Virus record (IMG/VR): IMGVR_UViG_3300002026_000057
Strand: one strand, 5' to 3'
Length of the DNA stretch: 11,202 bases
From: a virus
Taxonomy: Duplodnaviria > Heunggongvirae > Uroviricota > Caudoviricetes
The notes beneath the pieces were generated by a model. The model searched no databases, was not told the origin of the DNA, and saw nothing but the letters and a program-made list of their open reading frames with translations. This document shows, piece by piece, positions 1,948 to 11,200 of the stretch; positions within the stretch are counted from its first letter, which is position 1; each line of letters opens with the position of its first letter. The translations under genes were made by a program, and so were the position numbers.

Positions 1948-2748
1948 TTAAACAACATAGTTGTAATATAAAAATTCTGTTTTTGTTTTTGGTTTAAAAT
2001 TTCCGTCTATGGTCTTTACTTCAAAACTAACCCTCTTAAATCCATTATCCATCAACTTGTCATAAAGGTCACAATGATATCCACTAATAAGAATCTTTGC
2101 CTCACTCTTAATGACAGTGTCTATGAACTCAATATGTCCCTGTCTGTCCATATCAACCTTATATCGGGTACTGGTTCGTGTGGATTGTTCATATGGAGGA
2201 TCAGCATAGATAAAAACATTTTTCCTGTTATATTTTTCGATTAATTTTGTCCCATCCATATTGGTTACAATAACTTTGGAAAGTCTATCATGTAGTTCTG
2301 ACAACCTATCAATAGAAGACAAAAAATCGGAAATCGATTTACTCATTCCTCTTCTGATGTATGTATTCTTTGAGAAGCCTCCAACCCCATTATGAGATGT
2401 ACGATTCACATAAAAAAAACAAAAAGCCCGCTCGTCTATTGGTAAGTCGTTACGTTTTAGTTTTTCCTTGAGTTCTGATCGAATGTCTTCTGAATAAAAG
2501 GCAAGATCACATCTTTCTTTAAATACTTTAAACATATCCGGGTCAGATAACACCTTATATAAAGAATATACATTTTGATCCATATCATTGTATATCTCAA
2601 TAGGAACGGGATCTTTCTTTAATCCAATGCTGTATGAACCCCCAAATGGTTCTATGTATGTGTCATATTCTTCCCTGTTTGGGAAATATTCAATTATATT
2701 GTTGAACATTGTTCCTTTTCCTCCAAAATACTTAATGGGTGAATTCAT
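1948..2748 (-). CDS. dam: Dam/D12-class N6-adenine DNA methyltransferase (orphan; target unknown)
   Basis: N-terminal SPIKYFGGK (motif X), YIEPFGGS (SAM-binding motif I), EIYNDMD (motif II) and IYADPPY (catalytic motif IV) in alpha-class order. The start overlaps the upstream stop (TAATG at 2746-2750). Symbol denotes family only; GATC specificity is not established. Confidence 0.92.
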   Translation of the reverse strand: MNSPIKYFGGKGTMFNNIIEYFPNREEYDTYIEPFGGSYSIGLKKDPVPIEIYNDMDQNVYSLYKVLSDPDMFKVFKERCDLAFYSEDIRSELKEKLKRNDLPIDERAFCFFYVNRTSHNGVGGFSKNTYIRRGMSKSISDFLSSIDRLSELHDRLSKVIVTNMDGTKLIEKYNRKNVFIYADPPYEQSTRTSTRYKVDMDRQGHIEFIDTVIKSEAKILISGYHCDLYDKLMDNGFKRVSFEVKTIDGNFKPKTKTEFLYYNYVV

Positions 2749-3935
2749 TAAATTAAATTATTTTCAATCATTTTATCAATTACCATTTTAGGTGATATCT
2801 TTCTAGTACATTCAAAATTTTTATTAGTGGGGCAAAAATCTTTATGATGACAACATAAATTATCTGCATGTTCTTCAGAGTTATAGCACCCGCCACAAAC
2901 ATTCTCATTTTTGATTCTTATATTATCTTCTTGGAATTCATTCGACACAACGGTAAATCCAGAAATCATAACTGTTTTTTTACCAAGAGCCCAATTTAAC
3001 CAAGATAATCCTGAGCTAACACCAATGAAAAATTCAGCATGTTTCATATATTGCATCCTATCAATTAATGTGTAGTCACCGTTTCTTTTAATAATACCAT
3101 TTAATTCTGATTTTTCCTTAGAAATTGATATAATTTCATATCCCCTACTTTTTAATTCACTTATAAGATTCTTCCATCCCACTTGATTGTTCCACAATTT
3201 CATTGTTGGCCCTGAAGCGAATTCTGAAATACAAATATATTTCCCCATTATTGGACGATCTAAATTTATCTCAAAATGTGGCCTTATTTCTTTATATTCC
3301 AACCCCAGTACATTAGACACCTGTTTTTGTATTGGTATCAATAAAGGATGTTCGGGATTATTATCCACATCAAAAAATGTTAGTCCCTTAATATATTTTA
3401 CGGGTACTTTATTATATATGTTATTGTGGGAGTTATTAATTTTATCAATTCCTTTATCAAATGTATCCATATCTATTCCAATGGACACACTATAATGTGC
3501 GTATTGTACACCATATTCATTTAGTGGTAATCCAATATTCATCCATTTAATATTAGGATAATAATCTTTAAGAAACCACCAAAAATTAGTTGCAACCGTT
3601 AAATTACAATTATGTTTTTTTCTAAATTCTTCAAAATATGGAGCGTGGGCTATATTATCCCCCAAAGCCCTACTCGTTGAAGCTATTAGAACATTTTTCC
3701 CTCGACAATCAAATGTTTCAGTAAATACCTCAATCCCATTATGGAGAACAACAATCTTCCATTCCGTAAAATATTTCCTATTTGATCTTGTCCAATGATT
3801 ACAAGTAATTTCAGATTGATGAATTAATGTATTAGTTTTATTATCAAAAAATTGAACCAAATATACGTTATTATCTTCTCCAAGAATTTCAAGAGATGCA
3901 CCATAATTAAAATCTGAAATAAATTTAGTTTCCAT
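2748..3935 (-). CDS. Autotransporter strand-loop-strand O-heptosyltransferase (Aah/TibC, BAHT family) homologue, divergent paralogue 1
   Basis: SRALGDNIAHAPYFEEFRKKHNC (catalytic Asp loop), KLWNNQVGW, FIGVSSGLSWLNWALG, VMISGFT and C-terminal Cys cluster VCGGCYN...FCP...FECTRKISP. The N-terminal beta-rich segment aligns by eye with paralogue 2 (NHWTRSNRKYFTEWKI vs NHWTRANKKYYIDWKI). Confidence 0.88.
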   Translation of the reverse strand: METKFISDFNYGASLEILGEDNNVYLVQFFDNKTNTLIHQSEITCNHWTRSNRKYFTEWKIVVLHNGIEVFTETFDCRGKNVLIASTSRALGDNIAHAPYFEEFRKKHNCNLTVATNFWWFLKDYYPNIKWMNIGLPLNEYGVQYAHYSVSIGIDMDTFDKGIDKINNSHNNIYNKVPVKYIKGLTFFDVDNNPEHPLLIPIQKQVSNVLGLEYKEIRPHFEINLDRPIMGKYICISEFASGPTMKLWNNQVGWKNLISELKSRGYEIISISKEKSELNGIIKRNGDYTLIDRMQYMKHAEFFIGVSSGLSWLNWALGKKTVMISGFTVVSNEFQEDNIRIKNENVCGGCYNSEEHADNLCCHHKDFCPTNKNFECTRKISPKMVIDKMIENNLI

Positions 3936-3982: not shown

Positions 3983-4357
3983 ATGAGTGTACACATAAAC
4001 GGAAAAACTTTTAACGCTGAATACCTTAAACCCGACCAATTTTCAAAGGGTATGCAAGGTCGAAATAACCTTGATGGTTGTATGGTATTTAAAATGGGAA
4101 AAGGTCACCATTCATTTTGGATGAAAGGTTGCATAATTCCATTAGATATCATTTTTGTATTAAACAAACGAATCAGTATGATTCATCATAATTGTCCAAT
4201 TGAAGACCCTCATCGGATGAATCCGCCTCGTTATACTGGATTAGGGGATCATGTCCTCGAATTCCCTGGCGGAACGTGTAAAGATTGGAAAGTGGGGGAC
4301 AGAGTTAATATGTATCTCGGAGCCCCACAAAATCCTATTAGTCCGAGAGTAGTGTAG
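3983..4357 (+). CDS. DUF192 (COG1430) family protein
   Basis: KGMQGR...GCMVF...HSFWMKGCIIPLDIIFV...YVLE-like HVLEFPGG...KVGDRV matches the DUF192 pattern GLM-x-R...GMLF...FWMKN-x2-IPLDI-x-F. The 3' end overlaps the convergent gene by 20 nt (4338-4357). Confidence 0.9.
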   Translation: MSVHINGKTFNAEYLKPDQFSKGMQGRNNLDGCMVFKMGKGHHSFWMKGCIIPLDIIFVLNKRISMIHHNCPIEDPHRMNPPRYTGLGDHVLEFPGGTCKDWKVGDRVNMYLGAPQNPISPRVV

Positions 4358-4769
4358 ACAGTTTTTCGAGCTCTATATTAGTTCTCTTGTCTTCACTCAT
4401 CAAACTATTTAATTTCTTTTCAACTTCCCTCAATTCATTAACCTGACGTTGTGCCTGATTTTGTTTAATCTTTAATACAATATCATCCCTCCAATCTTCC
4501 AAAGTGAATCCGTGCCATGCGTTGTTAAAAACAACATCATATTTTTCAGCAACACTTTGAGATTTTTCAATTCTTGTTTCTAGATCCACTAGAATACTGA
4601 ACAAGAGTTCCGGGGTTGCAACGTTCAAATTTATCCTTGTTTGTGTACCATCTATCGGTAAGGATAAATTGGTTTTAAATGAAGGGTTTTTTATCTTTGA
4701 GATTTGAGCCTTCTTTTCTTCAACTTTCGTTAAAAGTTGTAACACTAAGTTGTCATTTTTCTTTGCCAT
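4338..4769 (-). CDS. Hypothetical 143-aa protein, coiled-coil at both ends
   Basis: Open frame coupled to the upstream gene by TAATG (4767-4771). Heptad-like VNELREVEKKLNSLMSEDKRTNIELEKL and a central GFTLEDWRDDI segment. Confidence 0.8.
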   Translation of the reverse strand: MAKKNDNLVLQLLTKVEEKKAQISKIKNPSFKTNLSLPIDGTQTRINLNVATPELLFSILVDLETRIEKSQSVAEKYDVVFNNAWHGFTLEDWRDDIVLKIKQNQAQRQVNELREVEKKLNSLMSEDKRTNIELEKLSTLLSD

Positions 4770-5920
4770 TATACTATTTTTTTAAATCCATTTTTATATA
4801 CTCTTACTAACATTCCATAATTCTGCATTAATTCTTCTTTGGAGAAAGTTCCTTCGGAAGTAGTATTATTTCTTGTGTGCCAAGAATATACCGAATTAGT
4901 ATCCCGATAAATTTCATATTCTTCGAAAGGCGCGTTGGTTCTTTTTATATTTTTCCTTGAGTTCACAAAATCCTCAAGAGTTCTTATATTCCCAAACCTA
5001 TAAACATAGGTACTATAATACAAACCCCTTTCGAAATGTTCTTTCAACCATTTTTCACTAAAAGGCTCAACCACCAAATGATCCGCCAAAGAAGCATAAA
5101 TGGAATTCAAGAATGTATCAACATAATCAGGAAACTTAGGATTTGGCGATTCGGAAATACATTTCTTTATCAAATTCATTGAAGAAACAAATTCATATCT
5201 TAATCCTTCTTCCTCAGTATCATGTGTAACAAAAACATGCTTCTTTTGGGGAGTAACAACGTAGTTTCTATCTTTTTCTATTTTTGTAACATTATTGTAT
5301 GTGTCTTCATATACATTGTATCGACCTATATAAACCCATTCTTGCATTCTGCCAGTAAGATAGGTATATCCCTCTTTCAGATCTCTTGCACTGAATTTTA
5401 CTGACTGCAAATCTGTGAATTCTTTACACATTTTATAATCGGGGGAAGATACAGGTAATAACACCAAATCCTTACCATCCCAAGAATAAACAAATTCACC
5501 CTCTAGTCCTTTACCCTTATAAGAACTACATTCTTGAAGGATATAAAGAAGATTTGGAATTGTAATTTCAAACTCCCATCCCCTTGGGTCATAAACCCTG
5601 GAATAGGTTTGACGATGATTCCAACCACTACTGTAACCTCCGGCTTTTTTGTTTAAGACAAACCCTTCGGTTGGAACATTATCAAATTCAATTGGTTTAA
5701 CACTATCATCGTGAATACCCTCTTCACGTACTCCGGATTCAGAATTCCACGTAGCATAAGGACTACCTTCTTTATGCCTCCAACTCTCCCAAGACCCCTC
5801 TTTCCTCCAAACTTTACCATCGTGATAAATGATATAACCTAACTTACCTGTGTAAGTGTCACCGCGTTTCTGTAACCCGACTTTACATTTTTCGGGAATA
5901 AATAATTGTGTTTTTGACAT
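4769..5920 (-). CDS. Hypothetical 383-aa phage-type protein with a Trp/Gly/Tyr/Arg-rich N-terminal domain
   Basis: Long open frame with TAATG overlaps at both ends. The N-terminal segment (RKEGSWESWR, GFVLNKKAGG, WNHRQ, RVYDPRGWEFEIT..NLL.IL, GEFVYSWDGKDLVLLP) looks like a conserved domain; no function recognised. Confidence 0.85.
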   Translation of the reverse strand: MSKTQLFIPEKCKVGLQKRGDTYTGKLGYIIYHDGKVWRKEGSWESWRHKEGSPYATWNSESGVREEGIHDDSVKPIEFDNVPTEGFVLNKKAGGYSSGWNHRQTYSRVYDPRGWEFEITIPNLLYILQECSSYKGKGLEGEFVYSWDGKDLVLLPVSSPDYKMCKEFTDLQSVKFSARDLKEGYTYLTGRMQEWVYIGRYNVYEDTYNNVTKIEKDRNYVVTPQKKHVFVTHDTEEEGLRYEFVSSMNLIKKCISESPNPKFPDYVDTFLNSIYASLADHLVVEPFSEKWLKEHFERGLYYSTYVYRFGNIRTLEDFVNSRKNIKRTNAPFEEYEIYRDTNSVYSWHTRNNTTSEGTFSKEELMQNYGMLVRVYKNGFKKIV

Positions 5921-7062
5921 TATAATTTTACTTTAGAATTAGACATTACTCCCTGAACAATAAGTTCAACGAAATCGATTGAATCGGGGGAATATGAATT
6001 ATATATTTTTTTGAATTTTGTATTCAATTTCTCATATTCAAACCGGAAATTTTTTCTTTGATCAAGGCAGGTTACCACAAGATTTTTGGGTAAACCATCG
6101 GAATATATATTATCGAGTTCGAATGAATGGTTAAGCAAGTCATAATCAATTTCACTAACCTTGAAATTCTTTTGCCATTCGTTGAACTTATTAATTTCAT
6201 CTTCAGTGTTAATGAGTTCAATTTTATCTTCGTTACTCATCCACCCAGCCCCATGTCTTGTTTGATAACAACGTGTGATATAGAATACTTCAATATCATC
6301 TATTCCAAGATTTCTGGCAATTGTAATAGCGTTTTTTGATGTGGTGTTGGAATATGTGACATTAGGAAATATTCCATGATCCATATCCAATAAAATACCC
6401 TGAGAACCTTCGAAAACTATGTTCTCATATTGTTTTAAGAAACTGTAAGGTTTAACATTGAATTCAATCTTTTCAACGTACTTCCAGAAGTATGTTGATT
6501 CCTCATCATAGATTTCTTTTAATTTCTTTAATTTCGGATAATCGTCTCCGATTAAATCCACATAATACTTGTATACCGAATTAACCTTTTCTTTAAGTGA
6601 AGGTAAATGTAATAGATCAACGCCATATACTTTATAAGGAGTTTCGATATTTCTTTTCATTGTTGCTCCCACACCAAGGCCACACGACCCATGATTAGTG
6701 ATTGGGGCAATTAATCGGTTGTATGCAACATCGGCAGGCGTCGTTACATTAACCAATGGATGGATATAAAATTCAATTTGACCGATTTTTTCGTACAACT
6801 CATATGCTTCTCGATACATCGTAACAGGATATATACTGCAATAATGAGATAAATAGGAGGGCACACCTCTCAGTGTGCCACTCCCAAAACTTGAATGAAT
6901 ATGACTAACGCCATTGATTTTAACATTATGACCAGCCTGTTGACCACCAGAAAATCTGACGACAATAGTTGATTTTGGATTTTTACTACAAAGGAAATCG
7001 GTTGTTATACCTTTTCCTTCATCACCCCAAATTGATCCGATTACAATCTTAGCGTTATTCAT
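5920..7062 (-). CDS. purA: Divergent adenylosuccinate synthetase (PurA)-like GTP-dependent ligase
   Basis: P-loop WGDEGKG, RFSGGQQAGH, HGSCGLGVG, FEGSQGILLDMDHG.FP.VT.SNTT, YQTRHGAG and VTCLD all align to PurA motifs. The aspartate-binding loop (EFGATTGRxRR in E. coli) is replaced by EINKFNEWQKNFK. Family is certain, canonical activity doubtful. Confidence 0.9.
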   Translation of the reverse strand: MNNAKIVIGSIWGDEGKGITTDFLCSKNPKSTIVVRFSGGQQAGHNVKINGVSHIHSSFGSGTLRGVPSYLSHYCSIYPVTMYREAYELYEKIGQIEFYIHPLVNVTTPADVAYNRLIAPITNHGSCGLGVGATMKRNIETPYKVYGVDLLHLPSLKEKVNSVYKYYVDLIGDDYPKLKKLKEIYDEESTYFWKYVEKIEFNVKPYSFLKQYENIVFEGSQGILLDMDHGIFPNVTYSNTTSKNAITIARNLGIDDIEVFYITRCYQTRHGAGWMSNEDKIELINTEDEINKFNEWQKNFKVSEIDYDLLNHSFELDNIYSDGLPKNLVVTCLDQRKNFRFEYEKLNTKFKKIYNSYSPDSIDFVELIVQGVMSNSKVKL

Positions 7063-7068
7063 AGTTTC

Positions 7069-7221
7069 TTATTCAGCAGGTTCGTTTTCCTGTGGTTCAG
7101 TCGTTACAACATCTTCAGTAGTTTCATTAACTACTTCAGTTGTTTCTTTAACCACTTCTTTTGCGTCGTCGGCAGCCATTTCCTCGAAAGACTGCGGATT
7201 GTTTCTGTTAACAGTTCCCAT
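7069..7221 (-). CDS. Small acidic protein, 50 aa (MGTVNRNNPQSFEEMAADDAKEVVKETTEVVNETTEDVVTTEPQENEPAE)
   Basis: Fills the gap between vWA and the PurA-like gene: ATG 2 nt after the vWA stop, TAA 6 nt before the PurA-like ATG. 14 D/E vs 3 K/R. Below the ORF-track length cutoff. Confidence 0.7.
   Translation of the reverse strand: MGTVNRNNPQSFEEMAADDAKEVVKETTEVVNETTEDVVTTEPQENEPAE
7099..7158 (-). repeat. In-frame 21-bp tandem repeat (EVVKETT / EVVNETT / degenerate EDVVTT)
   Basis: Units 7138-7158 and 7117-7137 are 18/21 identical; a degenerate third unit lies at 7099-7116. Confidence 0.75.
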
Positions 7222-7223
7222 AG

Positions 7224-8117
7224 TTATAACATAATTTTTGGTTCATCTTTTTTCTTAGTACCACTATCTGTGTCACTGATAACAGGTGACGACTTAGTGT
7301 CGTGAGAGATTCTTGACTCATAGTGAGAGACAATTGTATTTGCAATAACTTCACCTACTTTGGTGTAATCATTAACCTGAATACAACGTTGCCCAAGAAG
7401 TTTTTGCCAATATCCAAGTGAAGAGTGACCATTAGATCCTTCCATAATATGGATGTGGAAAACTTCATATTTCTCCTGAGCCATTTCAAGGAGTTCTTTA
7501 TCGGTATAATTTGACTGAGCACCGTTACCCATAAGTTCATCGATCGCGTTTTTCGGCAAAGTCCTCAAACAAGGTTCATCACCAATGGTAAAAAGGAAAC
7601 CCTTCTCACCACGCTTTTCAAATGCGTCGGTAACGGTATGTTTAGCTGCGAAATACCAAGCCAAAAAATAACTTTCACCAGCGTTACCACCACCACGACC
7701 TTCAAGCCATGTCCGGGTTAACCACAAATCAAGTTCTTCATCACCGCTTTCGAATTGACCAACCTGTAATGGAGCGTTATCATATTCATGATCACCAATT
7801 CCTAAGAAAAGGATGGAAGGATCAGAAATACCTTTTTGAATGAGATTACCAACCATATTTGGAAGTCCGTCCTTTACTAATTCGTGAGGAATTTTCCTCA
7901 TAGAACCAGTCTCATCAAGACCTATAATGATCGGTAAAGATTTTGGATGTGCAACGGAATCTCTGGCTTCACGAATAAGAGCCTTTGAAGGTACCATTGA
8001 CTCATGGATCTCACCTTTCTTATTTTGTACAAAAATATCGTCAGCGGATTTGGTGTAATAGCCCATTGAGGCTCCGCGAACTGTACGACTTTCGTGGCTA
8101 TACGAGCTATGACCCAT
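7224..8117 (-). CDS. von Willebrand factor A (vWA) domain protein with intact MIDAS
   Basis: Beta1-MIDAS PIIIGLDETGSM, then FLGIGD, EGRGGGNAGESY and FLFTIGDEP in vWA order. N-terminal MGHSSYS extension and REARDS..HP.S segment. Confidence 0.85.
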   Translation of the reverse strand: MGHSSYSHESRTVRGASMGYYTKSADDIFVQNKKGEIHESMVPSKALIREARDSVAHPKSLPIIIGLDETGSMRKIPHELVKDGLPNMVGNLIQKGISDPSILFLGIGDHEYDNAPLQVGQFESGDEELDLWLTRTWLEGRGGGNAGESYFLAWYFAAKHTVTDAFEKRGEKGFLFTIGDEPCLRTLPKNAIDELMGNGAQSNYTDKELLEMAQEKYEVFHIHIMEGSNGHSSLGYWQKLLGQRCIQVNDYTKVGEVIANTIVSHYESRISHDTKSSPVISDTDSGTKKKDEPKIML

Positions 8118-8561: not shown

Positions 8562-9206
8562 TTAGAAAAGATATTTTACTTTAGGTTTAGTTTTTTCGAG
8601 AACTATGAAATAAGAATGAAATTTTCTGGCATGTTCTTGTTTATTCCACTTGCCGCCAAAACTATTAATACGCATTTTTGCTACTAAAATAAACAGGTCT
8701 CTTGGATAAAACCCAATTTTCAACGCCATATTCATAATCATCACATGAGTAAAATGATTTTTACCACCTGAAACGGTATCCTGACATTTCATTATTACTA
8801 ACCCATCTTTCTCGCAGACCCGATAAAGCTCTTGTAATGTATTATAATAGTTGGTGGTTAATTTCTCATATGTGGTATAGCCCTCGAATCTCTTGGCAAT
8901 AACTGAACTACCCTCTTTGTTTTCTTTGTACATTTTACCACTTATTACAAATGGTGGATCATACATTATACTTTTCATTGTTCCGTCTTCAAACGGTAAA
9001 TTCTCAGAATCGGCTTGGATTGTATCTTCGGTTATTGGCACTAAATCGGTTTTAATTTTCGGCCCCTTTATATCTTTCCAAAATAATCCACGGGAATATG
9101 TACAATCAAGATCAAACTGTTCAATGTTATACAATTCCATTATATTCTTAATAACATCGTGGTTTGTATAATACACACTCCTTACGGGTACAAAGTCTTT
9201 ATCCAT
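8562..9206 (-). CDS. Small phage-type amino (m6A or m4C) DNA methyltransferase (orphan)
   Basis: SAM-binding DLDCTYSRGLFW (DxTY-G/S-xGxFW type), ADSENLPFEDG, and catalytic SIMYDPPF, in motif I then motif IV order. DNA as the substrate is inferred from the family. Confidence 0.8.
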   Translation of the reverse strand: MDKDFVPVRSVYYTNHDVIKNIMELYNIEQFDLDCTYSRGLFWKDIKGPKIKTDLVPITEDTIQADSENLPFEDGTMKSIMYDPPFVISGKMYKENKEGSSVIAKRFEGYTTYEKLTTNYYNTLQELYRVCEKDGLVIMKCQDTVSGGKNHFTHVMIMNMALKIGFYPRDLFILVAKMRINSFGGKWNKQEHARKFHSYFIVLEKTKPKVKYLF

Positions 9207-9237
9207 TTACTTTTTATTTTAATTTTAGTATCTTGGA

Positions 9238-9269
9238 CAAAGATAACGCAAATAAATAATAATTCCAAA
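9238..9269 (-). promoter_or_regulatory. Bacteroidota sigma-A consensus promoter for the second methyltransferase
   Basis: Minus strand TTTG (9266-9269), 20-nt spacer, TATCTTTG (9238-9245); an exact consensus match, followed by a short A-rich leader to the ATG at 9206. Confidence 0.82.
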
Positions 9270-9276
9270 TATTTAT
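9268..9276 (+). promoter_or_regulatory. AATAYTTAY motif, copy 2, upstream of GIY-YIG
   Basis: AATATTTAT, 15 nt before the ATG at 9292; within CCAAATATTTAT, which is shared with 3967-3978. Confidence 0.5.
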
Positions 9277-9291
9277 TAAAAAAGAACTAAT

Positions 9292-9879
9292 ATGGGTTGT
9301 GGGATATACAAGATTGAAAATTCAATTGATGGTAAAATTTATATTGGTAGTTCAGTTAATATTGAATCTCGACAATACAAACATTTTTGGATGTTGAAAC
9401 GTGGATGTCATGATAACCAACATTTACAAAACGCTTTTAATAAATTTAAAGAAAAATCTTTTAATTTTCAAATAATTGAACAGTGCAATGAAACAAAATT
9501 AATTGAAAGAGAAAACTTCCATATTGCCACACTTAAATCGAATACATCCGAATTTGGCTATAATCTTGCGACTGTTAATGAATTTAGAAGAAACACATAC
9601 AATGACTCTGTTAAAATAAAACTTTCGAGATATAATAAGATTAAAAATGGAAATTTTAATACATTTTCATTAACGAACATTAAAACAAATGATATGTTTA
9701 TGTTTGACACATTGGTTGAAGGAGCTAATTATTTAATTTTAAATGGATTTGCAAAAGGAAAACCTCGAAATGTGAGAATGTCAATTTCCAATTGCTTGCG
9801 AGGAATAAAAGTGGATAACGGATCTAAGGGATCAATACGGAAAACTTGTTATAAACATAATTTTGAAATAATAAACTAA
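9292..9879 (+). CDS. Free-standing GIY-YIG homing-type endonuclease with C-terminal NUMOD1/HTH-like DNA-binding module
   Basis: GIYKIENSIDGKIYIGSS, then R and H (ESRQYKH), HDNQHLQNAFNK, catalytic Glu in LIERENFHI, and EFGYNL: the I-TevI/Seg-type catalytic domain. C-terminal FDTLVEGANYL...SISNCLRG...KTCYKHNF resembles a NUMOD1-type HTH. Confidence 0.93.
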   Translation: MGCGIYKIENSIDGKIYIGSSVNIESRQYKHFWMLKRGCHDNQHLQNAFNKFKEKSFNFQIIEQCNETKLIERENFHIATLKSNTSEFGYNLATVNEFRRNTYNDSVKIKLSRYNKIKNGNFNTFSLTNIKTNDMFMFDTLVEGANYLILNGFAKGKPRNVRMSISNCLRGIKVDNGSKGSIRKTCYKHNFEIIN

Positions 9880-10087: not shown

Positions 10088-11200
10088 CTATAATCCGAGT
10101 GCAAGGTTTATTTGTTCAATAACGGTATCGGATGTAATCATTTTAGTACACTCGAATTGTCTATCTGTACCTTTATGGTCGGGACACCAATTCCAATCTC
10201 CAGCGTCCAAAATATGTCTATTAAAACAACCATGACACACATCTTCATTTATTATTCTTCGAATCCCATTTAATGGTTCACAATATGGTTCAGAAAACCC
10301 TGAGATTAATATGGTTTCAGTTCCAACCGCCCAAGCTAACCAAGACAAACCACTACCAACACCAATAAACAATTCTGATTCTTGAAGAATTTTAATAACA
10401 TTCTCAAGAGATCCTGATGGAACTTTGGTAATGCCTTTAGGGTGTTTGTTTCCCATATATCCGTCTTCTTCTTTAGAGACAAGTTTTACTTCGTACCCTT
10501 TTAATACTAAATAATCAACAATTTCTTGCCAACCAGTTGGATTGTTCCAATATTTGGATTGTGCGGTTGAATGAATACCTATTGAAACCACTTTCTTTTT
10601 TTCTGTACTTAATACTGGTAGTAACGGTCTTAATTCAACATAATCTAATCCAAGTATGTCGGATGCGGTTTTACTTAGTGGTTCAGTTTTTGGGTCAAAT
10701 TTGTTTTTATCAAAATCCACTTTATTATCTTTACGAAACCAACCCACTCTATATAGTGCGTAGATATCCTTAACCGTTGATCCTGGTTCAACAAATTCAA
10801 TATTTGGGTATTGATCTTTGAAAAGATTATTATGAAATGTTGAACAAATCACAGTACAATTATGCTCTATTCTAAATTTTTCAACATATGGAATCCACGC
10901 TAATGTGTCTCCTAATGATTTAGACTCAAACCCAATTAAAACCCTACGATTGTTAAAGTCCATTTTATGTTCATAGAAAAAATCAGTATCTAACCCTCTT
11001 ATTCGTATTTTCCAATCAATATAGTATTTCTTGTTTGCCCTTGTCCAATGATTACTTTTAAGATCTGTTTGATGATGAACCTCCCCAGTTTTTAAATCGA
11101 TAAACTCAACATTATAATATCTCGTATTTTTGTCGATAATTTCGACGAAGGGCCCATCTATAAAATTAATATTTAACTGATCTGGGGCGTTCTTTTCCAT
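10088..11200 (-). CDS. Autotransporter strand-loop-strand O-heptosyltransferase (Aah/TibC, BAHT family) homologue, canonical paralogue 2; may extend 5' beyond the window
   Basis: SKSLGDTLAWIPYVEKFR..HNC, STAQSKYWNNPTGWQ, FIGVGSGLSWLAWAVG, ILISGFS and Fe-site VCHGCFN...WCPDHKGTDRQFECTKMIT. Only 2 nt lie upstream of the ATG at 11200, so an N-terminal extension cannot be excluded. Confidence 0.93.
   Translation of the reverse strand: MEKNAPDQLNINFIDGPFVEIIDKNTRYYNVEFIDLKTGEVHHQTDLKSNHWTRANKKYYIDWKIRIRGLDTDFFYEHKMDFNNRRVLIGFESKSLGDTLAWIPYVEKFRIEHNCTVICSTFHNNLFKDQYPNIEFVEPGSTVKDIYALYRVGWFRKDNKVDFDKNKFDPKTEPLSKTASDILGLDYVELRPLLPVLSTEKKKVVSIGIHSTAQSKYWNNPTGWQEIVDYLVLKGYEVKLVSKEEDGYMGNKHPKGITKVPSGSLENVIKILQESELFIGVGSGLSWLAWAVGTETILISGFSEPYCEPLNGIRRIINEDVCHGCFNRHILDAGDWNWCPDHKGTDRQFECTKMITSDTVIEQINLALGL

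Follow-up and report, generated by a model that had tools for sequence, protein, structure and literature searches.

We describe here a group of vWA-linked proteins that forms a branch of its own within the adenylosuccinate-synthetase fold. Its representative is P0001, a PurA-like protein of 380 amino acids encoded in the IMG/VR virus record IMGVR_UViG_3300002026_000057, a stretch of 11,202 nucleotides from a member of the Caudoviricetes that we call the window throughout. P0001 retains the residues by which adenylosuccinate synthetase (PurA) transfers a phosphoryl group, has a rebuilt loop where PurA binds aspartate, and is encoded by the gene that closes a conserved cassette, where it is joined by those for an obligate vWA partner and an adaptor. 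Considering residues, structure and gene context jointly, we lean slightly towards a reading in which GTP would phosphorylate a 6-oxopurine-type oxygen, the nucleophile would not be free aspartate, and the cassette would take part in the response to NAD+ cleavage in bacteria and in countering NAD+-based immunity in phages.

The relationship of P0001 to PurA is clear at the level of the domain and of the fold. The Pfam model PF00709 recognizes P0001 at an E value of 4.5e-41 (141 bits against a cut-off of 27), with a match confined to residues 6-281 in a model of 416 positions, and a sequence search of the PDB with P0001 aligned bacterial PurA over the first ~280 residues only and reached the PurZ structures at an E value of 0.002. 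The AlphaFold2 (AF2) model of P0001, built on 144 relatives (predicted local distance difference test score [pLDDT], 95.4), superposes end to end on ligated E. coli PurA, so the whole fold is present in the model, with about 50 residues deleted. Its best matches in a fold search of the PDB are the fully ligated E. coli PurA structures 1cg3 and 1cg4 (Z 39.2 over 346 residues, with a root-mean-square deviation of 2.6), while archaeal PurA, PurZ0 and PurZ score lower, at Z 31-34. Modelling against both enzymes, which the initial annotation of this DNA had suggested, thus places P0001 nearer to PurA than to PurZ (Z ~31).

The active site of P0001 combines strict retention of some residues with consistent replacement of others. 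We aligned P0001 with E. coli PurA (NC_000913), phiVC8 PurZ, and the canonical purA products and PurA-like paralogues of five bacterial genomes, and we counted residue conservation in 144 relatives that are 36-80% identical to P0001; E. coli residues are numbered without the initiator Met. The residues Asp13, Lys16, His41, Gln224, Thr239 and Asp333 are all retained in P0001, and T236, the equivalent of Thr239, is kept in 141 of the 144 relatives. In PurA, Gln224, Thr239, Asp13 and His41 hold the nucleotide and its purine O6 in place. Six residues are exchanged: Asn38 for Gln, Thr129 for Cys, Arg131 for Leu, Arg143 for Thr, Val273 for His and Lys331 for Cys. The initial annotation had proposed the first three of these from a manual alignment and had described Arg143 as absent; profile alignment (hhalign) and multiple alignment (MAFFT), which agree on the replaced residues, bear out all four, and the motifs that it had quoted were all found in place, six in number with the loop EINKFNEWQKNFK at exactly 6160-6198. 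Among the IMP (inosine monophosphate) 5'-phosphate ligands Asn38, Thr129, Thr239 and Arg143', the Thr239 equivalent alone is retained; the PurA-like family has Gln at the first position, Cys or Val at the second and a variable residue at Arg143. The Thr129 position holds C in 99 relatives, V in 34 and T in 9, so this residue is no universal catalytic Cys. The residues Q297, H270 and R137 are invariant in all 144 relatives, and P0001 carries every family signature (Q42, R137, H270, Q297, F300-[RK]301 and C332). Because these replacements are conserved across 144 diverse relatives, we read them as signatures of the family rather than as drift.

A further replacement concerns the third substrate. 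In published structures, aspartate is contacted by Arg303 of E. coli PurA and, in PurZ, by the loop with Thr at its tip (PMC8342488). Seven canonical PurA proteins from three phyla read x-T-G-R-x-R-R in this loop and PurZ reads TTVTKKVRR, whereas in all vWA-linked proteins of the same alignment the loop is [WYH]-Q-[GK]-x-[FLI]-[RK] and is shortened by a deletion, which in P0001 amounts to 1-4 residues depending on the aligner. Over the 144 relatives the consensus is E-x-N-x-x-N-x-[WYF]-Q-[GK]-x-F-[RK]. Thr301, Arg303 and Arg305 are absent from every family member aligned, P0001 having NEWQK-NFK instead, and hydrophobic residues fill the former aspartate site in the alignment of the family. The canonical paralogues in the cassette-bearing genomes retain the x-T-G-R-x-R-R loop. 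The claim that the aspartate-binding loop has been replaced therefore stands in both alignments: TTGRxRR is gone, and EINKFNEWQKNFK occupies its position.

These differences, together with independent classification, support the view, already put forward in the initial annotation, that P0001 is neither PurA nor PurZ. P0001 scored 122 bits with the PurA equivalog model NF002223 (cut-off 402), 104 bits with TIGR00184 (cut-off 396) and 44 bits with the PurZ model NF038379 (cut-off 300) of NCBIfam. In a maximum-likelihood tree of 29 vWA-linked proteins, 7 canonical PurA proteins and 1 PurZ, a small outgroup sample, a single branch (support 100/98) parts the vWA-linked group from canonical PurA and PurZ. 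In all five of the cassette-bearing bacterial genomes checked, the PurA-like paralogue (142-210 bits with PF00709) is accompanied by a canonical purA (545-612 bits). The Chryseobacterium genome G001 (loci L170 and L174) has, besides its PurA-like paralogue, two full-length canonical purA genes (608 and 490 bits). Thus, P0001 shares with PurA (E. coli 1cg3, 1cg4 and 1ade; EC 6.3.4.4) the fold, the P-loop Asp and Lys, the catalytic His, Gln224, Thr239 and the Asp that specifies guanine, but it is 50 residues shorter, lacks the aspartate loop residues Thr301, Arg303 and Arg305 and falls below the equivalog cut-off, and its family pairs with a vWA gene and co-exists with true purA in its hosts. 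It is unlikely, in our estimate, that P0001 is still a working adenylosuccinate synthetase with a divergent loop, which would make it an auxiliary metabolic gene for AMP and ATP supply with host PurB finishing the reaction. The complete fold, the full set of phosphoryl-transfer residues, the PF00709 match at domain level and the persistence of the conserved [RK]301 and of polar loop residues would all suit such an enzyme, and a supply of adenylate would fit the NAD+-rebuilding contexts described below. The loss of all three loop residues in every member, a score far under the equivalog threshold and the presence of canonical purA in the hosts argue otherwise, and the obligate pairing with a vWA protein and an adaptor would be left without explanation. 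Consistent with the initial annotation, a Pfam search of the window's open reading frames (ORFs) yielded no PurB.

Some features point towards PurZ: the PurZ and PurZ0 enzymes (6FM1, 7ODX and 7VF6) are also phage-borne, shortened and of the same fold, the PHROG label of P0001 is "2-aminooxy adenylosuccinate synthetase," and DNA methyltransferase and glycosyltransferase genes lie close by in the window. In PurZ and PurZ0, however, Ser (or Gly) replaces the P-loop Asp (PMC12884076), and the P-loop of P0001 is GDEGKG, compared with GSTGKG in phiVC8 PurZ. The Thr-tipped aspartate loop of PurZ is absent as well, as is the company of DatZ, MazZ and DpoZ, with no HD, MazG or PolA match among the ORFs of the 11-kb window. 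The score with NF038379, the greater structural distance of PurZ and the retained Asp led us to reject a PurZ or Z-genome identity. No link of the PurA-like enzyme to DNA modification was found, and the same cassette occurs under NrtR in bacterial chromosomes. A role in making 2-aminoadenine (Z) DNA or another modified DNA base is therefore already contradicted, and we give it next to no credence.

Our analysis is consistent with a mechanism in which the enzyme would most likely bind GTP-Mg2+ and a 6-oxopurine (IMP-like) nucleotide and transfer the gamma-phosphate to the ring oxygen, with Asp14 as the base, His45 as the acid and Gln221 holding the oxygen; chemistry of this type on a 6-oxopurine nucleotide, as in PurZ, is what the retained residues would predict. 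Because the pocket that receives free L-aspartate in PurA and PurZ is rebuilt, another nucleophile would resolve the phosphorylated intermediate: ammonia or a different small amine may serve, or an amine that a protein partner presents. The retained catalytic residues make GTP-driven C-N ligation of another amine to a 6-oxopurine nucleotide a reasonable inference; if a new nucleophile is indeed joined to the purine, a reaction would be added to a textbook enzyme fold. An alternative is that the protein ligates no amine at all and works only as a phosphotransferase or nucleotide-gated GTPase, acting with the vWA protein and an Hsp70-recruiting adaptor on a protein client; it may phosphorylate an oxygen of some substrate, nucleotide-like or not, or be a switch that cycles GTP. 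PurA is a P-loop protein of the SIMIBI class, and signal recognition particle (SRP) GTPases are the next structural neighbours of the P0001 model in the PDB (Z ~12-13). The partners, with their vWA and J-domain components, resemble protein-handling modules, and the hydrophobic filling of the aspartate site would agree with the loss of ligation. The invariance of Q221, D14 and H45 and the near-invariance of T236 argue instead for retained PurA-type substrate chemistry, and the new invariant polar residues H270, Q297 and R137 suggest a specific small-molecule site, which together make the purely phosphotransferring or switch-like protein improbable.

The ligation mechanism would involve the other products of the cassette, the vWA protein and the adaptor, and the gene order is conserved. 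Of 80 viral loci from IMG/VR whose PurA-like proteins are 34-60% identical, 77 have a vWA homologue immediately upstream in the same orientation, and the remaining 3 end at a contig edge; the same arrangement is found in every resolvable bacterial locus, one genome per species being scanned. The two genes are mostly separated by -4 to +20 nt. Inserts of 750-1040 nt split them in L006, L015, L016, L026, L042, L045, L056 and L072-L076, and at least five of these inserts are GIY-YIG homing endonuclease genes related to the one at 9292-9879 in the window. All-against-all clustering revealed only one further conserved neighbour, a ~125-amino-acid protein like the 119-amino-acid product of the window, in 48 of the 80 viral loci.

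The vWA protein was identified by fold search only, since its sequence has no match in Pfam, NCBIfam or the PDB. Its AF2 model (pLDDT 91.5) is closest to integrin beta I-like domains in the PDB (Z ~16 over ~191 amino acids, with a root-mean-square deviation of ~2.8), and it has a complete metal-ion-dependent adhesion site (MIDAS) composed of D68-x-T-G-S (7902-7916), T161 and D180. The N terminus (8097-8117) reads M-G-x3-[YWF] in 74 of 75 viral and 43 of 43 bacterial copies, and Gly2 is invariant in an alignment of 63 sequences. Most copies end in an acidic linker of low model confidence followed by a short hydrophobic tail (-IML, -IIL, -EVL or -FY; 7227-7244 in the window). The tail resembles a docking peptide and the N-terminal Gly a possible nucleophile; complex prediction for the PurA-like and vWA proteins returned a score of 0.01, which counts neither for nor against binding. 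One could imagine that this Gly, freed by removal of the Met and followed by a conserved aromatic residue, attacks the phosphorylated 6-oxopurine nucleotide, so that the vWA protein becomes joined through its N terminus to the purine C6. We regard this as a long shot, but if true, the linkage would add a new kind to the known modifications of proteins, one used when ADP-ribose reports that NAD+ is being cleaved. PADLOC has no match for either the PurA-like enzyme or the vWA protein. A second vWA system, unrelated to the first, lies just downstream of the cassette in one phage contig (L166:9145-11745) and consists of separate genes for a MoxR-type AAA_5 protein and a CobT_C-type vWA protein.

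The first gene of the cassette comes in two forms. The coiled-coil-like protein of the window has homologues directly upstream of the vWA gene in the 48 viral loci mentioned above and in 12 Flavobacteriia/Chitinophagales loci; it has no Pfam, PHROG or NCBIfam match and belongs to no known family, and a match to PD-Lambda-2_C of PADLOC is marginal (E 8e-4). A ~300-amino-acid protein holds the same place in 10 other viral and 24 bacterial loci. Its HPD motif is invariant, 9 of 14 members match DnaJ (best E 2e-8), and its C-terminal domain has a kinase fold in which the catalytic-loop Asp is replaced by Gly; this alternative first gene therefore encodes a J-domain pseudokinase. J-domains recruit Hsp70. 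Comparison by hhalign revealed no relation between the two first-gene proteins. Mycobacteriophage Alice illustrates the second arrangement with the consecutive products gp246 (annotated as "serine/threonine kinase"), vWA-containing gp247 and PurA-like gp249. The enzyme would thus act with a vWA/MIDAS protein and an adaptor that is a coiled coil here and a J-domain pseudokinase elsewhere.

The bacterial loci suggest when the cassette is used. The pair of vWA and PurA-like genes is present in Flavobacterium, Chryseobacterium, Tenacibaculum, Saprospiraceae, Chitinophaga and Dyadobacter, and also in Chloroflexota, many actinomycetes, Planctomycetota, Myxococcota and others. A gene for NrtR (NUDIX plus NrtR_WHD) lies directly upstream of the cassette in 9 Flavobacteriia loci and directly upstream of the J-domain pseudokinase, vWA and PurA-like genes in at least 9 actinomycete loci, where housekeeping genes form the flanks, so the actinomycete cassette is a self-contained chromosomal unit and no prophage. 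NrtR is an ADP-ribose-sensing repressor. The bacterial cassette, placed behind such a regulator, would accordingly be switched on during NAD+ cleavage. The Flavobacteriia islands also hold genes for Prs-like and NAMPT-family proteins, NADAR, Macro, Tpt1/KptA, ADP-ribosylglycohydrolase (ARG) and Sir2, as well as DUF4291, a 2-oxoglutarate (2OG) oxygenase and a calcineurin-like phosphoesterase; the cassette stands between the Prs-like and NAMPT-family genes in L086, L088 and L089. In the NrtR island of L087, genes for a 2OG-Fe(II) oxygenase, DUF4291 and DUF2971 are found at 4186-4746, 7126-7719 and 8708-9760.

Some phages repeat this theme. In the viral locus L043 (706-5510), Prs-like, NAMPT-like, vWA, PurA-like and Macro genes are contiguous head to tail on one strand, which makes it the clearest phage case of the cassette joined to a pair of the type found in NAD+ reconstitution pathway 1 (NARP1). 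Locus L014 has Macro, coiled-coil, vWA and PurA-like genes followed by an overlapping NADAR gene, with a NAMPT-like gene further along; in L053, genes of the NAMPT-like, Prs-like, Macro or NADAR kind adjoin the cassette; and Rhizobium phages carry phosphoribosyltransferase-like and NMNAT/Nudix genes within 5 kb of the homologue. Since the cassette appears to be on in bacteria when NAD+ is cleaved, in large phages it would probably counter NAD+-targeting or ADP-ribose-based immunity. The fixed pairing of the PurA-like enzyme with a MIDAS protein and an Hsp70-recruiting pseudokinase, and its placement behind NrtR among NAD-salvage and ADP-ribose-removal genes, suggest that it has an as yet unstudied part in the NAD+-centred arms race of phages and bacteria.

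Several known systems resemble the cassette in part. The Prs-like and NAMPT-family genes of the Flavobacteriia islands are of the kind that forms the NARP1 gene pair (Adps and Namat), NARP1 likewise occurs in both phages and bacteria, and genes for NrtR, Prs-like and NAMPT-family proteins are found in common operons or islands with the cassette, both in Flavobacteriia and in a few phages. However, no enzyme of NARP1, NARP2 or NARP3 is homologous to the PurA-like protein, NARP3 being an unrelated PnuC/NadR pair (PMC13464706). NARP genes (Adps/Namat, NAMPT/NMNAT and PnuC/NadR) are absent from the window and adjoin the cassette only in L043, L014, L053, L086, L088 and L089, and a role in NAD+ rebuilding is contextual only. 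The NrtR/WYL-regulated, ARG-centred anti-ADP-ribosylation systems of Iyer et al. (Viruses 2022, PMC9503650) include a vWA "chaperone," Macro and NADAR and, in the section consulted, no PurA-like enzyme. They are similar to the cassette in the ADP-ribose-sensing Nudix regulator, the stand-alone vWA protein and the accretion of Macro, NADAR and ARG genes. The TerY-P kinase/vWA triads are similar in that a kinase-fold protein adjoins a vWA protein. Compared with both, the cassette differs in that its kinase fold, where a coiled coil does not stand in for it, is degenerate and joined to a J-domain, and in that no PP2C phosphatase accompanies it.

Several points weigh against the joint reading of a GTP-driven, NAD+-related enzyme with a new nucleophile. 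The rebuilt loop keeps a basic [RK]301 and the polar residues N291, N294 and Q297, and a carboxylate-bearing amine, even aspartate, may be usable. The contacts to the IMP 5'-phosphate are altered too, so the acceptor may be other than IMP. The chemistry is inferred, and ligand, activity and complex are predictions only. The neighbours of the phage cassette are heterogeneous: among 150 immediate neighbours in phages, scanned without bias against Pfam, no family dominates and only a few genes are NAD-related, with NAD synthase, NADAR, NAMPT and RNA-repair genes scattered. The link to NAD and ADP-ribose is thus strong in bacteria and occasional in phages. The window itself contains no NAD/ADP-ribose gene, and the proposed role in conflict leans mainly on the bacterial context. 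A simple metabolic reading, for its part, does not explain the vWA protein and the adaptor.

The family is large. An exhaustive HMMER search returned 2205 clusters at 50% identity with E < 1e-30, and the best 150 clusters all score above 217 bits, compared with ~78-89 for solved PurA chains. Homologues are found in isolated phages, among them ~200 cluster C mycobacteriophages (including Bxz1 and Alice), Rhizobium RHph phages and Vibrio phages. Hundreds of isolated phages carry a member that is usually annotated as adenylosuccinate synthetase or even PurZ, with the defining residues of both absent. A 2026 survey in Nucleic Acids Research counted 481 phage homologues of PF00709, of which only a 151-member PurZ group was characterized (PMC12884076), and full-text searches of the literature yielded no description of the vWA-linked family or cassette. 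Among long contigs, the 310-kb IMG/VR contig L010 is the one most closely related to the window, and the two have flanking methyltransferase, PcfJ and DUF192 genes in common. The window therefore comes from a large phage. The G+C content of the window (29-40%) and the copies in Flavobacterium and Chryseobacterium, which are 50-53% identical, suggest that the host probably belongs to the Bacteroidota. The features of the cassette and its surroundings are listed in Table 1.

Table 1. Cassette genes, active-site motifs of P0001 and adjoining genes, with positions in the window
Feature	Position	Strand	Evidence or remark
First cassette gene, coiled-coil-like protein, 119 aa	8117..8476	(-)	1-nt overlap with vWA start
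vWA/MIDAS protein, 297 aa	7224..8117	(-)	AF2 model, fold match, MIDAS residues
Small acidic 50-aa ORF between vWA and PurA-like genes, status uncertain	7069..7221	(-)	ORF list
PurA-like enzyme P0001, 380 aa	5920..7062	(-)	PF00709, AF2 model, PDB fold match
P-loop GDEGKG, D14 (E. coli Asp13), K17 (Lys16)	7009..7026	(-)	D14, K17 and G18 invariant in 144
AGH, H45 (E. coli His41), preceding Q42 for Asn38	6928..6936	(-)	H45 invariant, Q42 in 137/144
HGSCG for IGTTG, C127 at Thr129 position, L129 at Arg131 position	6679..6693	(-)	Alignment to canonical PurA
EGSQG, Q221 (E. coli Gln224)	6397..6411	(-)	E218, Q221 and G222 invariant
VTYSNTT	6340..6360	(-)	Motif where the initial annotation placed it
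TRHG, H270 for E. coli Val273	6250..6261	(-)	H270 invariant in 144; Val in PurA and PurZ
Rebuilt third-substrate loop EINKFNEWQKNFK	6160..6198	(-)	Position of E. coli 298-306 GATTGRRRR loop; hhalign and MAFFT
TCLD for TKLD, D334 (Asp333, guanine specificity) kept, C332 for Lys331	6061..6072	(-)	C332 in 137/144, D334 in 140/144
p383, 383 aa, phrog_2475 (unknown function), start-stop coupled to PurA-like gene, lineage-specific	4769..5920	(-)	PHROG match
p143, 143 aa, phrog_2574 (unknown function), start-stop coupled, lineage-specific	4338..4769	(-)	PHROG match

The genes p383 and p143 follow the PurA-like gene also in the near-identical contig L001. They were rejected as members of the cassette, since none of the 80 viral loci holds them, and Pfam and Atlas searches with p383 gave no usable match. 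The 50-amino-acid ORF likewise has no homologue among the 80 viral loci.

The rest of the window holds genes for a PcfJ-like protein (1-1932), a Dam-type (D12) methyltransferase (1948-2748), a DUF192 protein (3983-4357), an N6/N4 methyltransferase (8562-9206) and the GIY-YIG homing endonuclease (9292-9879). Two paralogous GT9/TibC-like (heptosyltransferase-type) glycosyltransferases are encoded at 2748-3935 and 10088-11200 (minus strand), and these glycosyltransferase genes may form a glycosylation module; on a related large phage contig, GT9, GT4 and methyltransferase genes adjoin a DUF192 gene too. A scan for sigma-70 promoters and terminators performed at chance level (24 found, 21 expected). 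Upstream of the 119-amino-acid gene we observed a Bacteroidota-type -7 box, TAnnTTTG (8534-8527, minus strand), followed by a perfect palindrome, TGTGAT-AA-ATCACA (8515-8502, minus strand), which is a candidate operator.

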